Source: Eledone cirrhosa (taxonomy: Eukaryota). Taken from it: a stretch of DNA of 64,000 nucleotides. Below, in pieces: positions 9,052-63,587 of the stretch. Where the stretch lies: assembly GCA_964016885.1 (NCBI GenBank), contig OZ024756.1, positions 5,022,001 to 5,086,000 on the forward strand. Direction: 5' to 3'. The position numbers and the translations under genes are program-made. The notes below the pieces were generated by a model. It had not been told where the DNA came from and searched no databases. It saw only the letters and a program-made list of their open reading frames with translations. The stretch's first letter is position 1. Every line of letters starts with the position of its first letter.

Positions 9052-9535
9052 ATATAAAGAATGAATAATAACAGGTAGACATCATAAAAAGGTAATTTAT
9101 TCCGTGTGCTTACAAGTGTTTCCACGGTGGTACTACAGCCTAGTTATGCTATGTGCAAATTCACAAGTACTTGCAGAACTCAAATATCCAATGCTGTGAC
9201 CACTGTTTCCTCAGAGCAGAATCATTCTGCTCTGAGGAAACAGTGGTCACAGCATTGGATATTTGAGTTCTGCAAGTACTTGTGAATTTGCACATAGCAT
9301 AACTAGGCTGTAGTACCACCGTGGAAACACTTGTAAGCACACGGAATAAATTACCTTTTTATGATGTCTACCTGTTATTATTCATTCTTTATATACACTC
9401 CGGAATACAGAAGGATTAGGAACTAAGTTTCTTCAACAATTCTTCCATGACTCGTAGAGTAACCTCTTACCGTACGTCAACCATATCCAGTGTAGTAATT
9501 AACCATTACTACATCTTGGATAATCCTATACCTAA
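9052..9535 (+). mobile_element. Palindromic hammerhead mini-element (Penelope-like inverted pLTR + tail) in (TA)n
   Basis: Perfect ~170-bp inverted arms 9052-9394 centred at 9223; ~140-bp unique tail; TA tracts on both sides. Confidence 0.8.
9228..9339 (+). ncRNA. Type I hammerhead ribozyme with long stem II (mirror copy 9107-9218 on -)
   Basis: tgct CTGAGGA [a(a)cagtggt-cacagc…gctgt-agtaccaccgtg] GAAAC actt GTA agca; stem I tgct/agca. Confidence 0.7.
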
Positions 9536-10009
9536 TATATATATATATATTTATATATATATGATAATAAGGACGCTGCGGAGTTGCAAATGGGTTACAT
9601 ATGAAAAAAGTTTGTCCTTCATCAGTGGTCTTCCAACCATCATAGGCATTTCATCGCTTTAGAGACCATATACCTCCGGTTGGTGCGAGCAACGGCTAAA
9701 AAAAGTCGTTGGGACACGTAAATAAAGGGGACGCGAGGGTAAAGAAACAAAATGGTGAAGCAACAGACAGTGAGGAAGAGAGAGACAAGTCCCAGATTTC
9801 TATGAATTTAAATTCGGTGAAATCGTGAACGAGAGAATAAAGACCATCAAACCTGGTTGAAATGTGAGCAAGGAAGGAATTTCGCACAGGTCTAACGGGA
9901 GGAAGAAGGGGTCTGGTCTGCGAATTCGGTAAACATAAGTTCTGTGAAATTGTAGACGAGAGAGAGAGAGAAAAAAAATTCATACCAGCTTGGCCAAGAG
10001 TGCGCGAGA

Positions 10010-10480
10010 AAATATACGATATATTAACAAATGGAAACTATATTTATAAAACCATTTTTATTTCATTATACATATTTCAAGGATACCAAGTTAAATTATG
10101 GTGTGCTTTCATCAGATAAAATATAATATAGATCAGTTTTATAAATAAATATTGACATACCCTTAAAGAATGCTTCCAACGAGGTTGACTTTGCCTTTCA
10201 TCCTTACGGGGTCGATAAAATAAAGTACCAGTAATGCACTGGGTAATTGCTGGCCTTGTGCCTAACGTAGAAACAATTATATTTTATCTGATGAAAGCAC
10301 ACCATAATTTAACTTGGTGTCCTTGAAATATATATAATGAAATAAATATGGTTTTATAAATATAGTTTCAATTTGTTAATATATCGTATTTTTACTCCAA
10401 TAATTTGTTGAGTGCTTTATATCAGTTATAAAAATATTTGCATGTTGTATCCCAACAATTTAAATAGAACTTCTACACAC
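10010..10480 (+). mobile_element. Palindromic hammerhead mini-element, family B, with a SINE-A half in its centre
   Basis: Left arm 10010-10173 is partly the reverse complement of 10279-10389; tail 10390-10480; homologous to 43615-43882. Confidence 0.75.
10280..10344 (+). ncRNA. Type I hammerhead ribozyme (mirror copy ~10059-10123 on -)
   Basis: tattttat CTGATGA aagcacacca taatttaact tggtgtcctt GAAA tatata TA atgaaata. Confidence 0.78.
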
Positions 10481-10537
10481 ATATATATATATATATATAT
10501 ATATATATATATATATATATATATATATATATATATA

Positions 10538-10738
10538 TGAAAAGATTCAGGACCCCGACGGCTGAGCTCTGGCCGTTTCGAAAGCTAGATTCGAACCGAG
10601 TTCGGATCTAGCTGTCGAAACGGCCGGAGCTCAGCCGTAGGGATCCTAAATCTTTTCATATTACCCACTCTACTACCCCAAGTATCGAGTACTCTGGTGG
10701 GTTATGGTCTAGCTGGGTTTTACCACACCCTATTTGAT
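10538..10738 (+). mobile_element. Palindromic mini-element family C (3' half of hammerhead)
   Basis: Inverted arms around stem-loop agctagattcgaac/gttcggatctagct, then GAAACGGC…GCCGTA and tail ccactctac…gagtact. Confidence 0.75.
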
Positions 10739-11209
10739 CTCTCTCTCTCTCTCTCTCTCTCTCTCTCTCCCTCTCTCTCTCTCTCACGTCTATATATGTA
10801 TGCTGTTTCTTATTGAGCTATTACTGTGAACGATAGACGTGTTGAGGGGTGACTTGCTTGAAAGGGAACGCATGCCGTAGTGTCGCTATCTGCAGACAAT
10901 AGCACTGTCAAGTTTCGGACACATCTGTAATGGAGGTAATCAGAACCATACATAGGAAATATGAGATGGTAACCTCGTGACGTAGGGTGTGATAAGGTCC
11001 TGTAAATTAAAGGTACAGTCAATCCGACGGACTTCCAAACAGTTTCCGTCTACCAAACTTTACACATCAGTCATGGGTCAAACCGAGGCTATGGTAACGA
11101 AGACTTACCAAGGATGTTCAGACTGGGATCGAACCTTCTCCCTTTTTAAAATCTGTTTTCTTTCTGATGTGGCGTTGGTGATGAGCGAACGAGAAAACAA
11201 ACGTGAGAT

Positions 11210-11850
11210 ATACACAGGAGAGAGGGGGGGGGGTTGAAAGGAGGGATAGTGAGAGGGTTGGGTGACTGGATGGATGAAGAGAGAGATGGATGGATAGAGA
11301 GAGGAGGGGTGGGTGAAGCGAGGTAGGGAGGAGGCGTAGATGGAGAGAGGAATTGAGGGGTAGATAGAGGGAGGAGAGGGAGTGGTAGATGGAGAGAGGA
11401 ATTGAGGGGTAGATGGAGAGAGAGGGAAGAGAGGGGAGGGAGGAATTGAGGGGTAGATAGAGAGAGAGAGGGGTAGATGGAGAGAGAGGGGAGGGAGGAA
11501 TTGAGGGGTAGATAGAGGGAAGGGTAGGAGGAATAGAGGGATAGATGATAAGAGGGTGGATGGAGGGAAGGAGGAATTGGGGGGGGTAGGGGTAGATAAA
11601 GGGGAGATGGGTGGAGGGGTGATGCTGAGAAAAGGGGTGGGTGGGTGGGTGGAGAGAATAAATGGGGTGGGGGGGGGGGTTATAAAGGGGAGATGGGTGG
11701 AGGGGTGATGCTGAGAAAAGGGGTGGGGGGGTGGAGAGAAGAAATGGGGGGGGGTAGATAAAGGGGAGATGGGTGGAGAGAAGAAATGTGATTTGAGAGA
11801 TAAAAAGTAATGTATAGGAAAAGGGGAGAGGAAGGAAGTTAGGGGAGACA
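11210..11850. repeat. Purine-rich (GA/GGA) low-complexity repeat
   Basis: Direct. Confidence 0.85.
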
Positions 11851-61232: not shown

Positions 61233-62258
61233 GACTGTGTTCTAAATAACTATGTCGAATTATTTCTATATTTAAATAACAACGAACATTGAAGAAAAAA
61301 TAAAACCGCCATCAACAATGAGACTAATAAAAAAACAATAAGAAGTATTACAACAAAGAATTTATATTGGTTGGGGAAGTTTGTTTCTTTATGAAGGAAC
61401 TATCGTAACCAAAGGCCAGTTTATATATGGCAGCCAATGGGAAGAGGAGGAAGGATAGAGCAGGATAACATGTCATAAATATATAGGAAACGGAAATAGG
61501 AAGAAGAGCGAGAGGGATGGAGAGAGAGAGGAAGAGAGAGAGAGAAAGTGTTAGAGAGAGGTAGAGAGTCAGAGAGAGAGAGAGTTAGATACAGTCAGAG
61601 ACAGAGAGAAATGGGTAGAGAGAGAGGGGGGAGGGTAGAGAGAAAGTAGAGAGAAAGAGAGTGTGTGTGAGAGAGAGAAAGAGAGAGAAAGTGTGCGTGT
61701 GTGTGAGAGAGAGAGAAAGAGTAAGACAAAAAATAATTTTATTCTCTAGATAGATGCTTAAAAACACTTTACAAGAAAAAAGCGAACAATGGAAAAAGAT
61801 AAAAAACGAACAGGTTATAAAAGGAGGAAAGGAAAATGTGAAAGAAACTCACGTACATTAAAATTAAACAACAACAACAACAATAACAACAATAACAACG
61901 AGAACAACACAAACAATAATAACAACAACAACAACAGTAACAACAACAACAACAACAATAACAGTAGCACAAACTATAATAAATGGGTTTATACACATAT
62001 ATGTAAATGTTAAATTCACACAGATACATATAAATATGTCATAAATGTTGACACTGACACATACACACGCGCACACACACACACGCACACACGTGGGGCA
62101 ACACATATACTCACACACATGTATATATTGATGTATTTGCCACCACGATAAAATAAGGTCACCTGGTATGAGAGGAACACGTTTGTGTTTGTCCTATTTT
62201 CCATTCGAATTACACATATATATATATATATATATATATATATATATATATATATATA

Positions 62259-62976
62259 TAAGTATGTACACGTACATACATATATGTATACAGACGTACA
62301 GTAGTATGTATATATATATACATGCAAACATATATATATGTACGTATAGATTCATCGAACATTTATTATAATGCTCGGTGTGTTTGTAAACAAACATCCC
62401 GTATTAAGCCGTAGTGTCTAGCAACCATCGTTGCTCGTTTGTTCAACACTGACAAAGGAACGCTGTACTAGTTTCAAGCTTATTAGCTATCGTCAGCAAC
62501 GTATACCTTCCTGCCAGATCGTTGAACGTATATACTTACCTTATGCATATTAACGGCTGAGTAGCCCAATTTGCATATCGAGTGGGTTAATCGGCCGGGT
62601 GCACCGAAAACGATAAACGGAAAAAATGAAAGAAATTTAATTTCCCACTCTTAGTACGGCTGTTACTTAAATATAAGTATGTAGACGTACATACATATAT
62701 GTATACAGACGTACAGTAGTGTTGAACAAACGAGCAACGATGGTTGCTAGACACTACGGCTTAATACGGGATGTTTGTTTACAAACACACCGAGCATTAT
62801 AATAAATGTTCGGTGAATCCATACGTACATATATATATGTGTGCATGTATGTATATAAATATGCATACTACTGTACGTCTGTATACATATATGTATGTAC
62901 GTGTACATACTTATATTTAAGTAACAGCCGTGCTAAGAGTGGGAAATGAAATTTCTTTCATTTTTTTCCGTTTATA
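62259..62976 (-). mobile_element. Retrozyme/pLTR-like element: 1.1 head-to-tail monomers (~415 nt) plus inverted arm, in (TA)n
   Basis: agtatgtaSacgtacatac at 62261 and again at 62676; 62718-62975 is the reverse complement of 62261-62450 plus tail. Confidence 0.75.
62461..62501 (-). ncRNA. Minimal type I hammerhead ribozyme
   Basis: Minus strand: cgttg CTGACGA t agct aata agct t GAAAC ta GTA cagcg; palindromic stem III ACTAGT. Confidence 0.85.
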
Positions 62977-62989
62977 TATATATATAAAT

Positions 62990-63395
62990 ATAATTAAAAG
63001 TTTAACAAGGTTCAATGAATTAATCAATGAATAAAGTTTCACAATAGATTATAAGCACTCTACAGTAGGGTTTTCTGGAGTTATTAATATTACTTCAAAA
63101 TATTAATAAATATAGACATTCATGTGATCAAATATATTTTATTATACATATTTCAGAGATACTGAGCTATTTCAACAGTACGTCCTCATCAGATAAAATA
63201 AGTTGATGCCTGACATACCTTGACTATGTTGATGACTAAATTATAACCATCAACATAGTCAAGGTACGTCAGGCATCAACTTATTTTATCTGATGAGGAC
63301 GTACTGTTGAAATAGCTCAGTATCTCTGAAATATATATAATAAAATATATTTGATCACATGAATGTCCATATTTATTGATATTTTGAAGTAATAT
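62990..63395 (-). mobile_element. Palindromic hammerhead mini-element (family B-related)
   Basis: Arms ~63087-63394 centred ~63241; tail homologous to 29186-29276. Confidence 0.8.
63282..63347 (+). ncRNA. Type I hammerhead ribozyme (mirror 63135-63200 on -)
   Basis: tattttat CTGATGA ggacgtactg ttgaaatagct cagtatctct GAAA tatata TA ataaaata; 8-bp stem I. Confidence 0.82.
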
Positions 63396-63406
63396 ATATA
63401 TATATA

Positions 63407-63587
63407 TAGGAACGAGTAGGACCCCGACGGCTGAACTCAAGCCGTTTCGACGGCTAATTCTGAACGGCTAATTCTGAGCTCAGCCGTCGGGGTCCTACTC
63501 GTTCCTATTACCCACTCTACTACCCTAAGTATTGAGTACTTTGGTGCGTTATGGTCCTCCTGGTTCCTTACCACATTTCCATCGTTA
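63407..63587 (+). mobile_element. Family C mini-element in (TA)n
   Basis: Same arms and tail as 60296-60488. Confidence 0.78.

Follow-up and report, generated by a model that had tools for sequence, protein, structure and literature searches.

Most of the short inserts in the window, by which we mean the whole 64,000-nucleotide stretch of Eledone cirrhosa DNA analyzed here, appear to be 5′-truncated 3′ ends (pLTRs) of ORF-bearing Penelope-like elements (PLEs), chiefly of the Hydra clade, because longer copies of them lead into ORFs with reverse transcriptase (RT) and endonuclease; we give this reading a probability of about 0.9. They probably reached (TA)n through target-primed reverse transcription that terminated early. 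The window holds 26 inserts in 17 families, with 15 fold-back pairs among them. An earlier reading, made from sequence only, had described about 20 unrelated, non-autonomous elements; the inserts are real, but their number is higher. Each carries all or part of a hammerhead motif, and self-cleavage is predicted.

All ten loci at which complete type I cores with paired stems had been claimed carry CUGANGA...GAAA...NUH with paired stems (C3 positions 9232+, 10288+, 28803-, 29493+, 29721-, 41400-, 42232+, 43784+, 62496-, and 63290+), and the four said to be mirrored on the opposite strand are so (9214-, 10115-, 29386-, and 63192-). Two are weak in the window copy: at 28803, the first pair of stem II is C.A and a G.G lies inside stem III, and at 9232, the first pair is A.G and stem II spans 85 nt. 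The variant cores held up in part. Those at 15153- and 60066+ are complete U3-A8 cores, 43256+ has a U4C change that recurs in the full-length copy L282, and the family J pair 42597+/42519- is C3A in the window, where 30 of 45 collected cores of the family read CTGATGA. The core at 58814-, however, is an incomplete ribozyme because it is 5′-truncated, has no stem I, and reads GAGA in place of GAAA. Absent from the earlier description were a further full hammerhead at 54+, a degenerate hammerhead family at 28961/42720/44000, and half-hammerheads in family N (five main copies and a fragment) and in the palindrome 28324-28683. A 55-bp satellite at 2126-7081 contains CTGATGA but fails the descriptor.

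A strict hammerhead descriptor gave 10 matches in the window against a shuffle mean of 0.05 (maximum 1; 100 shuffles), and a relaxed one gave 13 against 0.07 (maximum 2; 60 shuffles). The proposed check with Rfam hammerhead models turned out negative, with zero matches in the window at gathering score and no hammerhead among 150 of 324 e-value matches listed; those listed are chiefly microRNA models on hairpins and microsatellites. Stem sequences differ between families while pairing is kept, as had been stated. Across 16 families, stem I pairs at 0.90 within a family and 0.49 across families, and stem II at 1.00 and 0.39, with stem boundaries picked by pairing score, which favors the within-family value; 0 of 20,000 permutations matched the observed values for the two stems. 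The first pair of stem II is U.U in five families, G.U in four, A-U in two, and G-C in two, and 6 of 16 families have a C.C mismatch at pair 4. The window is AT-rich, with 41% masked as simple or tandem repeat, a background that could favor chance motifs or assembly fold-back artifacts. That explanation has a negligible probability: shuffles yield <0.1 matches, the stems covary, thousands of copies are dispersed, older inserts have diverged arms (B2, 143/150), and family H words occur in sequencing runs of three studies. It is refuted by the shuffles, the covariation, and the one-arm-per-site pairs described below.

As a monomer, stem III is predicted at a probability ≤0.18 in 12 of 13 cores, and self-dimers via stem III are predicted for 13 of 13 (weakly for E and K). 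For most of these hammerheads, activity is predicted to depend on dimerization via the self-complementary stem III, and folding models suggest that lone or palindromic inserts are inactive relics; palindrome transcripts are predicted to form hairpins 94-99% paired, which would bury the ribozyme.

Read from its start, the window opens with a family Z 3′ end (20-205, +, core 54) belonging to a longer Hydra-type copy, L280, whose ORF stops ∼930 bp before window base 1. Two Hydra-type PLE 3′ ends follow, a perfect palindrome with tail of family E (9057-9545, cores 9232+ and 9214-) and an inverted pair of family A (10006-10480, cores 10288+ and 10115-) with a SINE piece inside it at 10180-10280; copies of family A elsewhere in the genome have open ORFs. 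A relative of family N at 10539-10727 is a palindrome with the 3′ hammerhead half only and a tail, family N itself forms a half-hammerhead palindrome with tail at 14784-14950, and family I (14984-15230, -, core 15153) is a Neptune-type PLE 3′ end with a compact U3-A8 hammerhead. The next cluster comprises a 360-bp palindrome of family P with a 3′ hammerhead half and tail (28200-28692), inverted pairs of family F (28712-28960, degenerate core 28803-), family O (28961-29170, degenerate cores 29022-/29038+, Hydra-like tail motif), and family B1 (29188-29601, cores 29493+ and 29386-; ∼75% like B2, which has a Hydra-type parent), and a single arm of family C, a Hydra-type PLE 3′ end (29621-29840, -, core 29721). 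Single arms of family G (41281-41540, -, core 41400) and family D (42165-42345, +, core 42232, Hydra-like tail motif) precede a family J palindrome with tail and C3A cores (42388-42657, 42597+ and 42519-), a family O copy with a mutated core at 42720 and an inverted tail piece (42684-42787, +), and a tail-only piece akin to family A (42837-42939, +). Family K (43180-43585, +, U4C core 43256) is again a Hydra-type PLE 3′ end; A2, the sister of A, has core 43784+ and an inverted tail-only arm (43614-43880), and 43974-44194 combines a family O piece (43974-44110) with a family N fragment (44144-44194). Farther on lie the truncated, incomplete hammerhead of family L (58665-58815, -), an ORF-less palindrome of family M (59932-60255, U3-A8 core 60066+) with a second piece at 60517-60793, a half-hammerhead palindrome with tail of family N (60298-60486), and family N copies at 60878-61066 and 63406-63586. 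Between these copies are a retrozyme-like family H element with an inverted arm (62261-62975, core 62496-) and an inverted pair with tail of family B2, a Hydra-type PLE 3′ end (62993-63392, cores 63290+ and 63192-).

To find parents, we read longer genomic copies from the hammerhead end in the upstream direction, as the sequence-only reading had proposed, and reached RT and endonuclease ORFs in 10 of 17 families (A, B, C, E, I, J, K, N, P, and Z), which bears out the Penelope-like origin it suggested. Nine show Hydra-clade motifs, and family I has a Neptune-type ORF. In three Hydra-type families (A, N, and K), tandem pLTRs, observed in L088, L091, L277, and L282, flank open ORFs of 738-808 aa. 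Parents of A/A2 have frames of 738-781 aa, with pLTR flanks on both sides in L088 and L091; the family N parent, the Hydra-type unit L277, measures 3,544 bp and combines a 791-aa open frame with a U3-A8 hammerhead that has a 5-bp stem III; and the family K parent, L282, has an 808-aa open frame between pLTRs. Family B2 is linked to a Hydra-type PLE by copy L247, family P by a single locus (L187) with a Hydra-type endonuclease upstream, and family J to a Hydra-type ORF by flanking structure at two loci outside the window. Two candidate links were discarded because the flanks showed insert and ORF to belong to separate insertions, namely, family J (42592) to the Neptune ORF of L075 and family H (62496) to the Poseidon-like ORF of L067. 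Upstream extension of copies found no ORF link for families D, F, G, L, and O, any of which may be non-autonomous. Some family D copies reach >1 kb upstream and attain no ORF; a fixed 5′ end for this family was ruled out, as other copies extend further. Inside the window, tblastn with three PLE proteins detected no PLE coding sequence, as had been stated for RT and endonuclease; another PLE ORF piece lies ∼7 kb beyond the window end.

The assignment to the Hydra clade is putative and draws on protein motifs, the hammerhead, and (TA)n insertion. The aligned Hydra-type proteins, 38-42% identical to that of L277, show DKT/S, RWR/K, CxCX5C, and CxxC..E..N..CxH and have no Neptune-type zinc motifs. 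All three full-length proteins have DKT (DKG changed), with RWR, RWR, and RWK as the RW motif; CxCX5C and CxxC are present in all seven Hydra-type alignment rows, and CxH in all six that reach that point. The CxCX5C and CxxC/CxH set is absent from the Neptune-type family I parent, L057, which has the CX2-5CxxC linker before GIY-YIG as CGRSNCGTC and is labeled Neptune by motif only. Pfam RT and GIY-YIG models do not match the Hydra-type protein, and they support both domains only in L057 (RT slightly below cutoff) and L067. At 3,544 bp (L277) and ∼3.7 kb (L091), the units exceed the <3 kb that is given as a tendency for the "generally short" Hydra elements (PMC8557442). Hydra tails share an ACTC...GAGT motif, and families D and O have a Hydra-like one; ACUC-GAGU pairing failed as a general rule, with a probability of 0.75-1.0 in two of nine tails and ≤0.26 in the rest. 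The description of the elements as unrelated does not stand for nine families, which are akin in protein identity and this tail motif.

It is unlikely that the short inserts are instead non-autonomous mini-elements (retrozymes or SINE-like) that are transcribed and re-mobilized in trans. Such a form fits family H, where 26 of 27 loci are longer than one 422-bp unit and 12 reach ≥1.8 units, the longest ATG frame is 51 aa, and the circular fold has a predicted z = -7. At two further loci, L251 and L057, the family M tail precedes the hammerhead of the same element, and family N copies are strikingly uniform, with 45 of 70 unselected arms beginning 31-50 nt before the cleavage site. However, 10 of the 17 families continue into the ORFs described above, 5′ ends and palindrome centers differ from copy to copy, the short N copies are without half of the ribozyme, and the palindromic transcripts would bury it. 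Family N was likewise rejected as a fixed ribozyme-less hairpin element, for longer copies have a full U3-A8 hammerhead and an ORF. The non-autonomous label thus survives clearly for H and on fewer copies for M, both of which we class by sequence as ORF-less, circularly permuted, retrozyme-like repeats. In H, short units, each with its own type I hammerhead, follow one another in tandem, and the window element joins 1.1 units of the ∼420-bp monomer to an inverted arm; its insertion signature is PLE-like, with two end sites, an inverted arm, and TA flanks. The family M unit is roughly 330 bp, with no full dimer among 9 matches. Both families were likely mobilized in trans by a PLE protein of this kind.

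The inserts do lie near (TA)n, as had been proposed: 22 of 24 cores are ≤300 bp from a (TA)5+ run, versus 39% of random unmasked positions. Two fixed end sites account for 518 of 559 arms in 10 families, a count in which many loci were chosen by a query covering one arm and the distal site includes copies running on into the tandem unit (references were cut at that site). The sites sit 20-230 nt downstream of the hammerhead cleavage site, beside TA, and TA is at the junction in 503 of 559 arms. Of 157 inverted pairs examined, 130 could be classified, and 125 of these place their two arms at different sites, one per site. The 5′ ends do not accumulate at the cleavage site: of 244 unselected arms, 2 end there and 215 cross it. 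Because copies read through this site, the template was probably RNA that was uncut or had been re-ligated. We infer that the element's endonuclease may cut both strands of a TA run, that each DNA end would prime cDNA synthesis on such RNA from one of the two internal sites, and that both cDNAs would stall early and be joined head to head, giving a palindrome with a tail on one side.

Fold-back of the cDNA, or second-strand synthesis ending at TA-like microhomology, could form the palindromes without priming from both target ends. It would likewise yield one arm per site, the arms of young palindromes are identical (E, 166/166; J, 98/98, including the C3A change), and palindrome centers are often at small hairpins. 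We nevertheless consider it doubtful, although less so than a mini-element origin. At window 43614-43880 and at L143 and L174, the arms are not mutual copies, because the tailed arm is tail-only and the hammerhead is on the other; the arms of L278 differ at the core; and extension on both strands has been shown in vitro for a related PLE (PMC11167929). Priming from both ends remains our preferred account.

Searches with families A, B2, C, D, E, and H gave 911-1,827 first-look candidates each, so the inserts are multicopy, and identities of 99-100% among family E copies and 99% in family N uphold the recent activity that had been claimed. Density in the window (1 per 2.5 kb) is raised, even above the claimed one per 3 kb, but not unique, a 400-kb sample having 1 per 7 kb; the 26 hammerheads in that 400 kb extrapolate to ∼200,000 genome-wide. 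An even bet, in our judgment, is the joint reading that this genome has one of the largest hammerhead populations known, from a Hydra-clade PLE radiation, in which a PLE protein dimer would start one cDNA per site, guided in Hydra elements by the conserved ACUC...GAGU tail, and the retrozyme H carries the same signature. If true, the H signature would be direct genomic evidence for PLE proteins moving animal retrozymes. Our literature search found no report of such a population in this genome, of the one-arm-per-site rule in PLE inverted pairs, of the ACTC...GAGT motif in Hydra tails, or of a PLE insertion signature on a retrozyme.

The results thereby explain a large class of palindromic repeats that lack annotation, at ∼one insert per 7 kb for these families alone, as PLE ends, which Rfam misses, as Pfam misses Hydra proteins. 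Any transcripts of the long perfect hairpins would form double-stranded RNA. With the young open-frame Hydra elements L277, L282, and L079, PLE integration, studied in vitro to date with a Poseidon element, could be examined on a TA target and from exactly known start sites. For retrozymes, the results also supply an autonomous/non-autonomous pairing that can be tested; the studies consulted propose such a pairing from co-occurrence and phylogeny.

The inserts mostly belong to a known type of PLE, and the mechanistic leads are useful. Craig et al. (2021) described hammerhead and (TA)n targeting in Hydra-1_Obim of Octopus bimaculoides (PMC8557442, supplement), and our elements resemble the Hydra-clade PLEs of that study in the single ORF with RT and C-terminal endonuclease, DKT, RW(K/R), CxCX5C, and CxxC/CxH, in the type I hammerhead in the pLTR, often with U.U beside the core, and in (TA)n targeting and inverted 5′-truncated copies. 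With the minimal type I hammerheads of metazoan PLEs (Cervera and de la Pena 2014, PMC4209133), they share a long helix II, a short palindromic helix III, dispersed single motifs, opposite-strand pairs 100-700 bp apart, U3-A8 covariation, and high within-genome diversity, whereas here G10.1-C11.1 is rare in register, C.C occurs at stem II pair 4 in 6/16, and family N has a 5-bp stem III; our ∼200,000 estimated motifs compare with 2,000-9,000 in genomes there, under different descriptors. As ORF-less units of ∼420 and ∼330 bp, H and M resemble non-LTR retrozymes as far as the available parts of two reports describe them (Cervera and de la Pena 2020, PMC7229834; Li et al., bioRxiv 2026.07.22.740005), with one type I hammerhead per unit and, in H, more-than-unit and tandem copies and a highly paired predicted circular fold; unlike the retrozymes in those parts, H bears the PLE insertion signature. 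The closest parallel in mechanism is Poseidon PAc of Anolis (Frangieh et al. 2024, PMC11167929), for which in vitro work revealed two internal RT start sites bounding the tail, extension on both strands, an AT-rich target, and uncut RNA as substrate, the likely template here. PAc belongs to another clade, and its start sites did not differ between strands in vitro, whereas the genomic pairs described here use one site each in 125 of 130 cases.

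A strict type I hammerhead descriptor returns 10 matches in the window against a shuffle mean of 0.05, and a relaxed one returns 13 against 0.07, an excess that bears out the sequence-only reading; each of the ten complete loci and four mirrored copies it claimed is present. Across 16 families (one representative each, with truncated family L excluded and stem boundaries picked by pairing score), pairing with the family's own partner is 0.90 for stem I and 1.00 for stem II, compared with 0.49 and 0.39 for partners from other families, and none of 20,000 permutations reached the within-family level. 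The claim that stems differ while pairing is kept therefore holds, as does the (TA)n setting, since 22 of 24 cores have a TA run at most 300 bp away, versus 39% of random unmasked positions. The proposed check with Rfam models recovered no window core at gathering score. A C.C mismatch at pair 4 of stem II is retained in 6 of the 16 families (A, A2, B1, B2, C, D) and sits one register further on in family G; it is possibly a tertiary or metal site. Separately, a 55-bp satellite (window 2126-7081; 90 copies, 96% matches) carries CTGATGA on the minus strand followed by a short hairpin, without the GAAA box, and contains a piece of a common SINE.

Most of the five variant cores claimed earlier stand. 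The cores at 15153- and 60066+ are complete and carry U3-A8, a covariation known from Schistosoma PLEs (PMC4209133, in excerpt); 43256+ is U4C, and 42597 has C3A in both arms, with 30 of 45 cores of its family canonical. The exception, 58814-, is a truncated, incomplete hammerhead. The family I core is TTGAAAA in 23 of 24 cases; full family N cores read TTGAGAA (five) or CTGAGAA (four).

As the sequence-only reading held, the 64 kb contain no PLE coding sequence; the nearest ORFs lie ∼0.9 kb before the window start and 7 kb after its end. Non-LTR retrotransposon fragments (RT and C-terminal parts), which we take to be Tx1/L1-like, occupy 15488-16597, 48121-50049, and 53595-57168 and are related to long frames at three other loci (L040, L061, L253). 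A 75-bp minisatellite at 32516-33868 (18 copies, 98% matches) stays open in two reading frames.

We queried the 3.0-Gb genome, whose size, repeat content and SINE motif fit an octopus-like cephalopod, with single families and traced longer copies upstream. Upstream of family A (911 candidates) comes a low-complexity 3′ UTR of ∼1.7 kb, preceded by an RT and endonuclease frame. Of 70,634 first-look candidates from a protein search, 122 were scored; at least 6 of 20 loci examined for long frames hold open frames of 738-781 aa, and at L088 and L091 the hammerhead end flanks the frame on both sides. The family N parent is a tandem unit of 3,544 bp whose frame spans 791 aa, that of family K has an 808-aa frame between pLTRs, related coding sequence was reached from E, B2, C, J, Z, and P, and B1 is assigned by likeness to B2. 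In all, the suggested upstream extension reached an ORF in 10 of 17 families (counting A/A2 and B1/B2 once each); tracing reached none for D, F, G, L, and O. In seven matches, a Neptune-type ORF precedes family I by ∼1 kb. The Hydra-type parent proteins carry DKT, RW(R/K), CxCX5C, and CxxC..E..N..CxH, the same motifs that are diagnostic of the Hydra clade in PMC8557442, whose supplement gives Hydra-1_Obim of Octopus bimaculoides a (TA)n preference and a hammerhead. For one such protein (L277:3895-6051), the protein collection contains at least 1,968 relatives at E ≤ 1e-20, and contigs of 2-4 kb carry most of the best 120. Pfam RT and GIY-YIG models do not match the related protein from L079. 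The clade may be much bigger than published accounts suggest. Nine loci (L162, L165, L167, L172, L173, L179, L191, L201, L254) hold extra hammerhead families that the window lacks, in some of which stem II is longer than 100 nt, and L254 encodes a GIY-YIG protein of a different kind.

With site 1 offsets placed by hand, ACTC directly 3′ of site 1 and then GAGT occur in 9 of 10 tails (shuffle mean 0.10, maximum 2 in 2,000 shuffles): all seven Hydra-linked tails tested plus D and O, which suggests that D and O are Hydra ends. The motif, a candidate protein-binding signal, is absent from the Neptune-type family I tail and, by eye, from H and M.

The earlier claim of non-autonomous elements fails for the 10 ORF-linked families but fits H clearly and, on fewer copies, M; the units of both are ORF-less. 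The family H unit (62496) is 422 bp with no ATG frame above 51 aa. Removing the window and two duplicates from the 30 loci retrieved leaves 27, of which 26 are longer than a single unit, 12 measure at least 1.8 units, and 15 adjoin an inverted arm. Two sites account for 35 of 42 arm ends, mostly next to TA. Flanks match PLE proteins at four of the 27, none shown contiguous with H. Copies above one unit are compatible with a circular or a tandem template alike. At L251 and L057, the family M (60066) tail lies upstream of that family's own hammerhead. Both families fit the retrozymes of PMC7229834, where PLEs are proposed as mobiliser, and of bioRxiv 2026.07.22.740005, whose argument rests on phylogeny, as far as the excerpts of each go.

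Forty 10-kb stretches at round coordinates (20 large-contig, 20 small-contig) contain 26 hammerheads (18 and 8, respectively; shuffles 0.1), extrapolating to ∼195,000 in the whole genome (Poisson range 127,000-285,000, broader if the motifs cluster) by a descriptor that misses N, I, and some other families. Window-defined families occur 57 times in these 400 kb versus 26 times in the window, a contrast inflated because they were defined there. Family N is the most abundant in the sample (14 inserts). Published counts are 2,000-9,000 minimal motifs for each genome, and retrozymes reach 120,000 in axolotl (excerpts of PMC4209133, PMC7229834); a recent Octopus vulgaris annotation lists 31 active Penelope-like families (PMC13282606, in part).

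In 10 families, two fixed sites account for 518 of 559 arm ends, the distal-site count including copies in which a tandem unit follows, and TA is at the junction in 503. Both ends lie at a site in 130 of 157 head-to-head pairs; 125 have one arm per site and five have both at the same site. In the proposed mechanism, cDNA would be primed from both target ends. Of 244 unselected arms, 215 read across the cleavage site and only two begin there, so the RNA template was apparently uncut or re-ligated; uncut RNA dominates for a Poseidon element in vitro (PMC11167929, in excerpt). For 12 of 13 cores, folding of the monomer predicts stem III at a probability of at most 0.18, family N (0.63) being the exception, and self-dimers are predicted to be possible. 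Cleavage may proceed as a dimer, as small PLE hammerheads reportedly do according to a 2017 study. Palindromic inserts are predicted to fold into hairpins 94-99% paired, and relic inserts would be catalytically inactive. Most family N copies end within loop II, 31-50 nt short of the cleavage site, leaving half a ribozyme (e.g., window 60298-60486). Inserts of different families are chained via successive TA runs at 42343-44200 and 59900-61070, as expected if every insertion leaves fresh TA targets on both sides.

PLE pLTR hammerheads, the Hydra clade, TA targeting, inverted truncated copies, and retrozymes are already known, and the inserts are real and largely explained as further members of these kinds, with a few testable leads. 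Searches of the literature outside subscription papers turned up no work on octopus hammerheads other than the Hydra entry (Hydra-1_Obim), and none on strict start-site pairing or on the tail motif. The one-of-each pairing quantifies the known PLE "tail at one end" and agrees with the in vitro results for the Poseidon element, in which RT starts at two internal sites and both strands are extended (PMC11167929, in excerpt).
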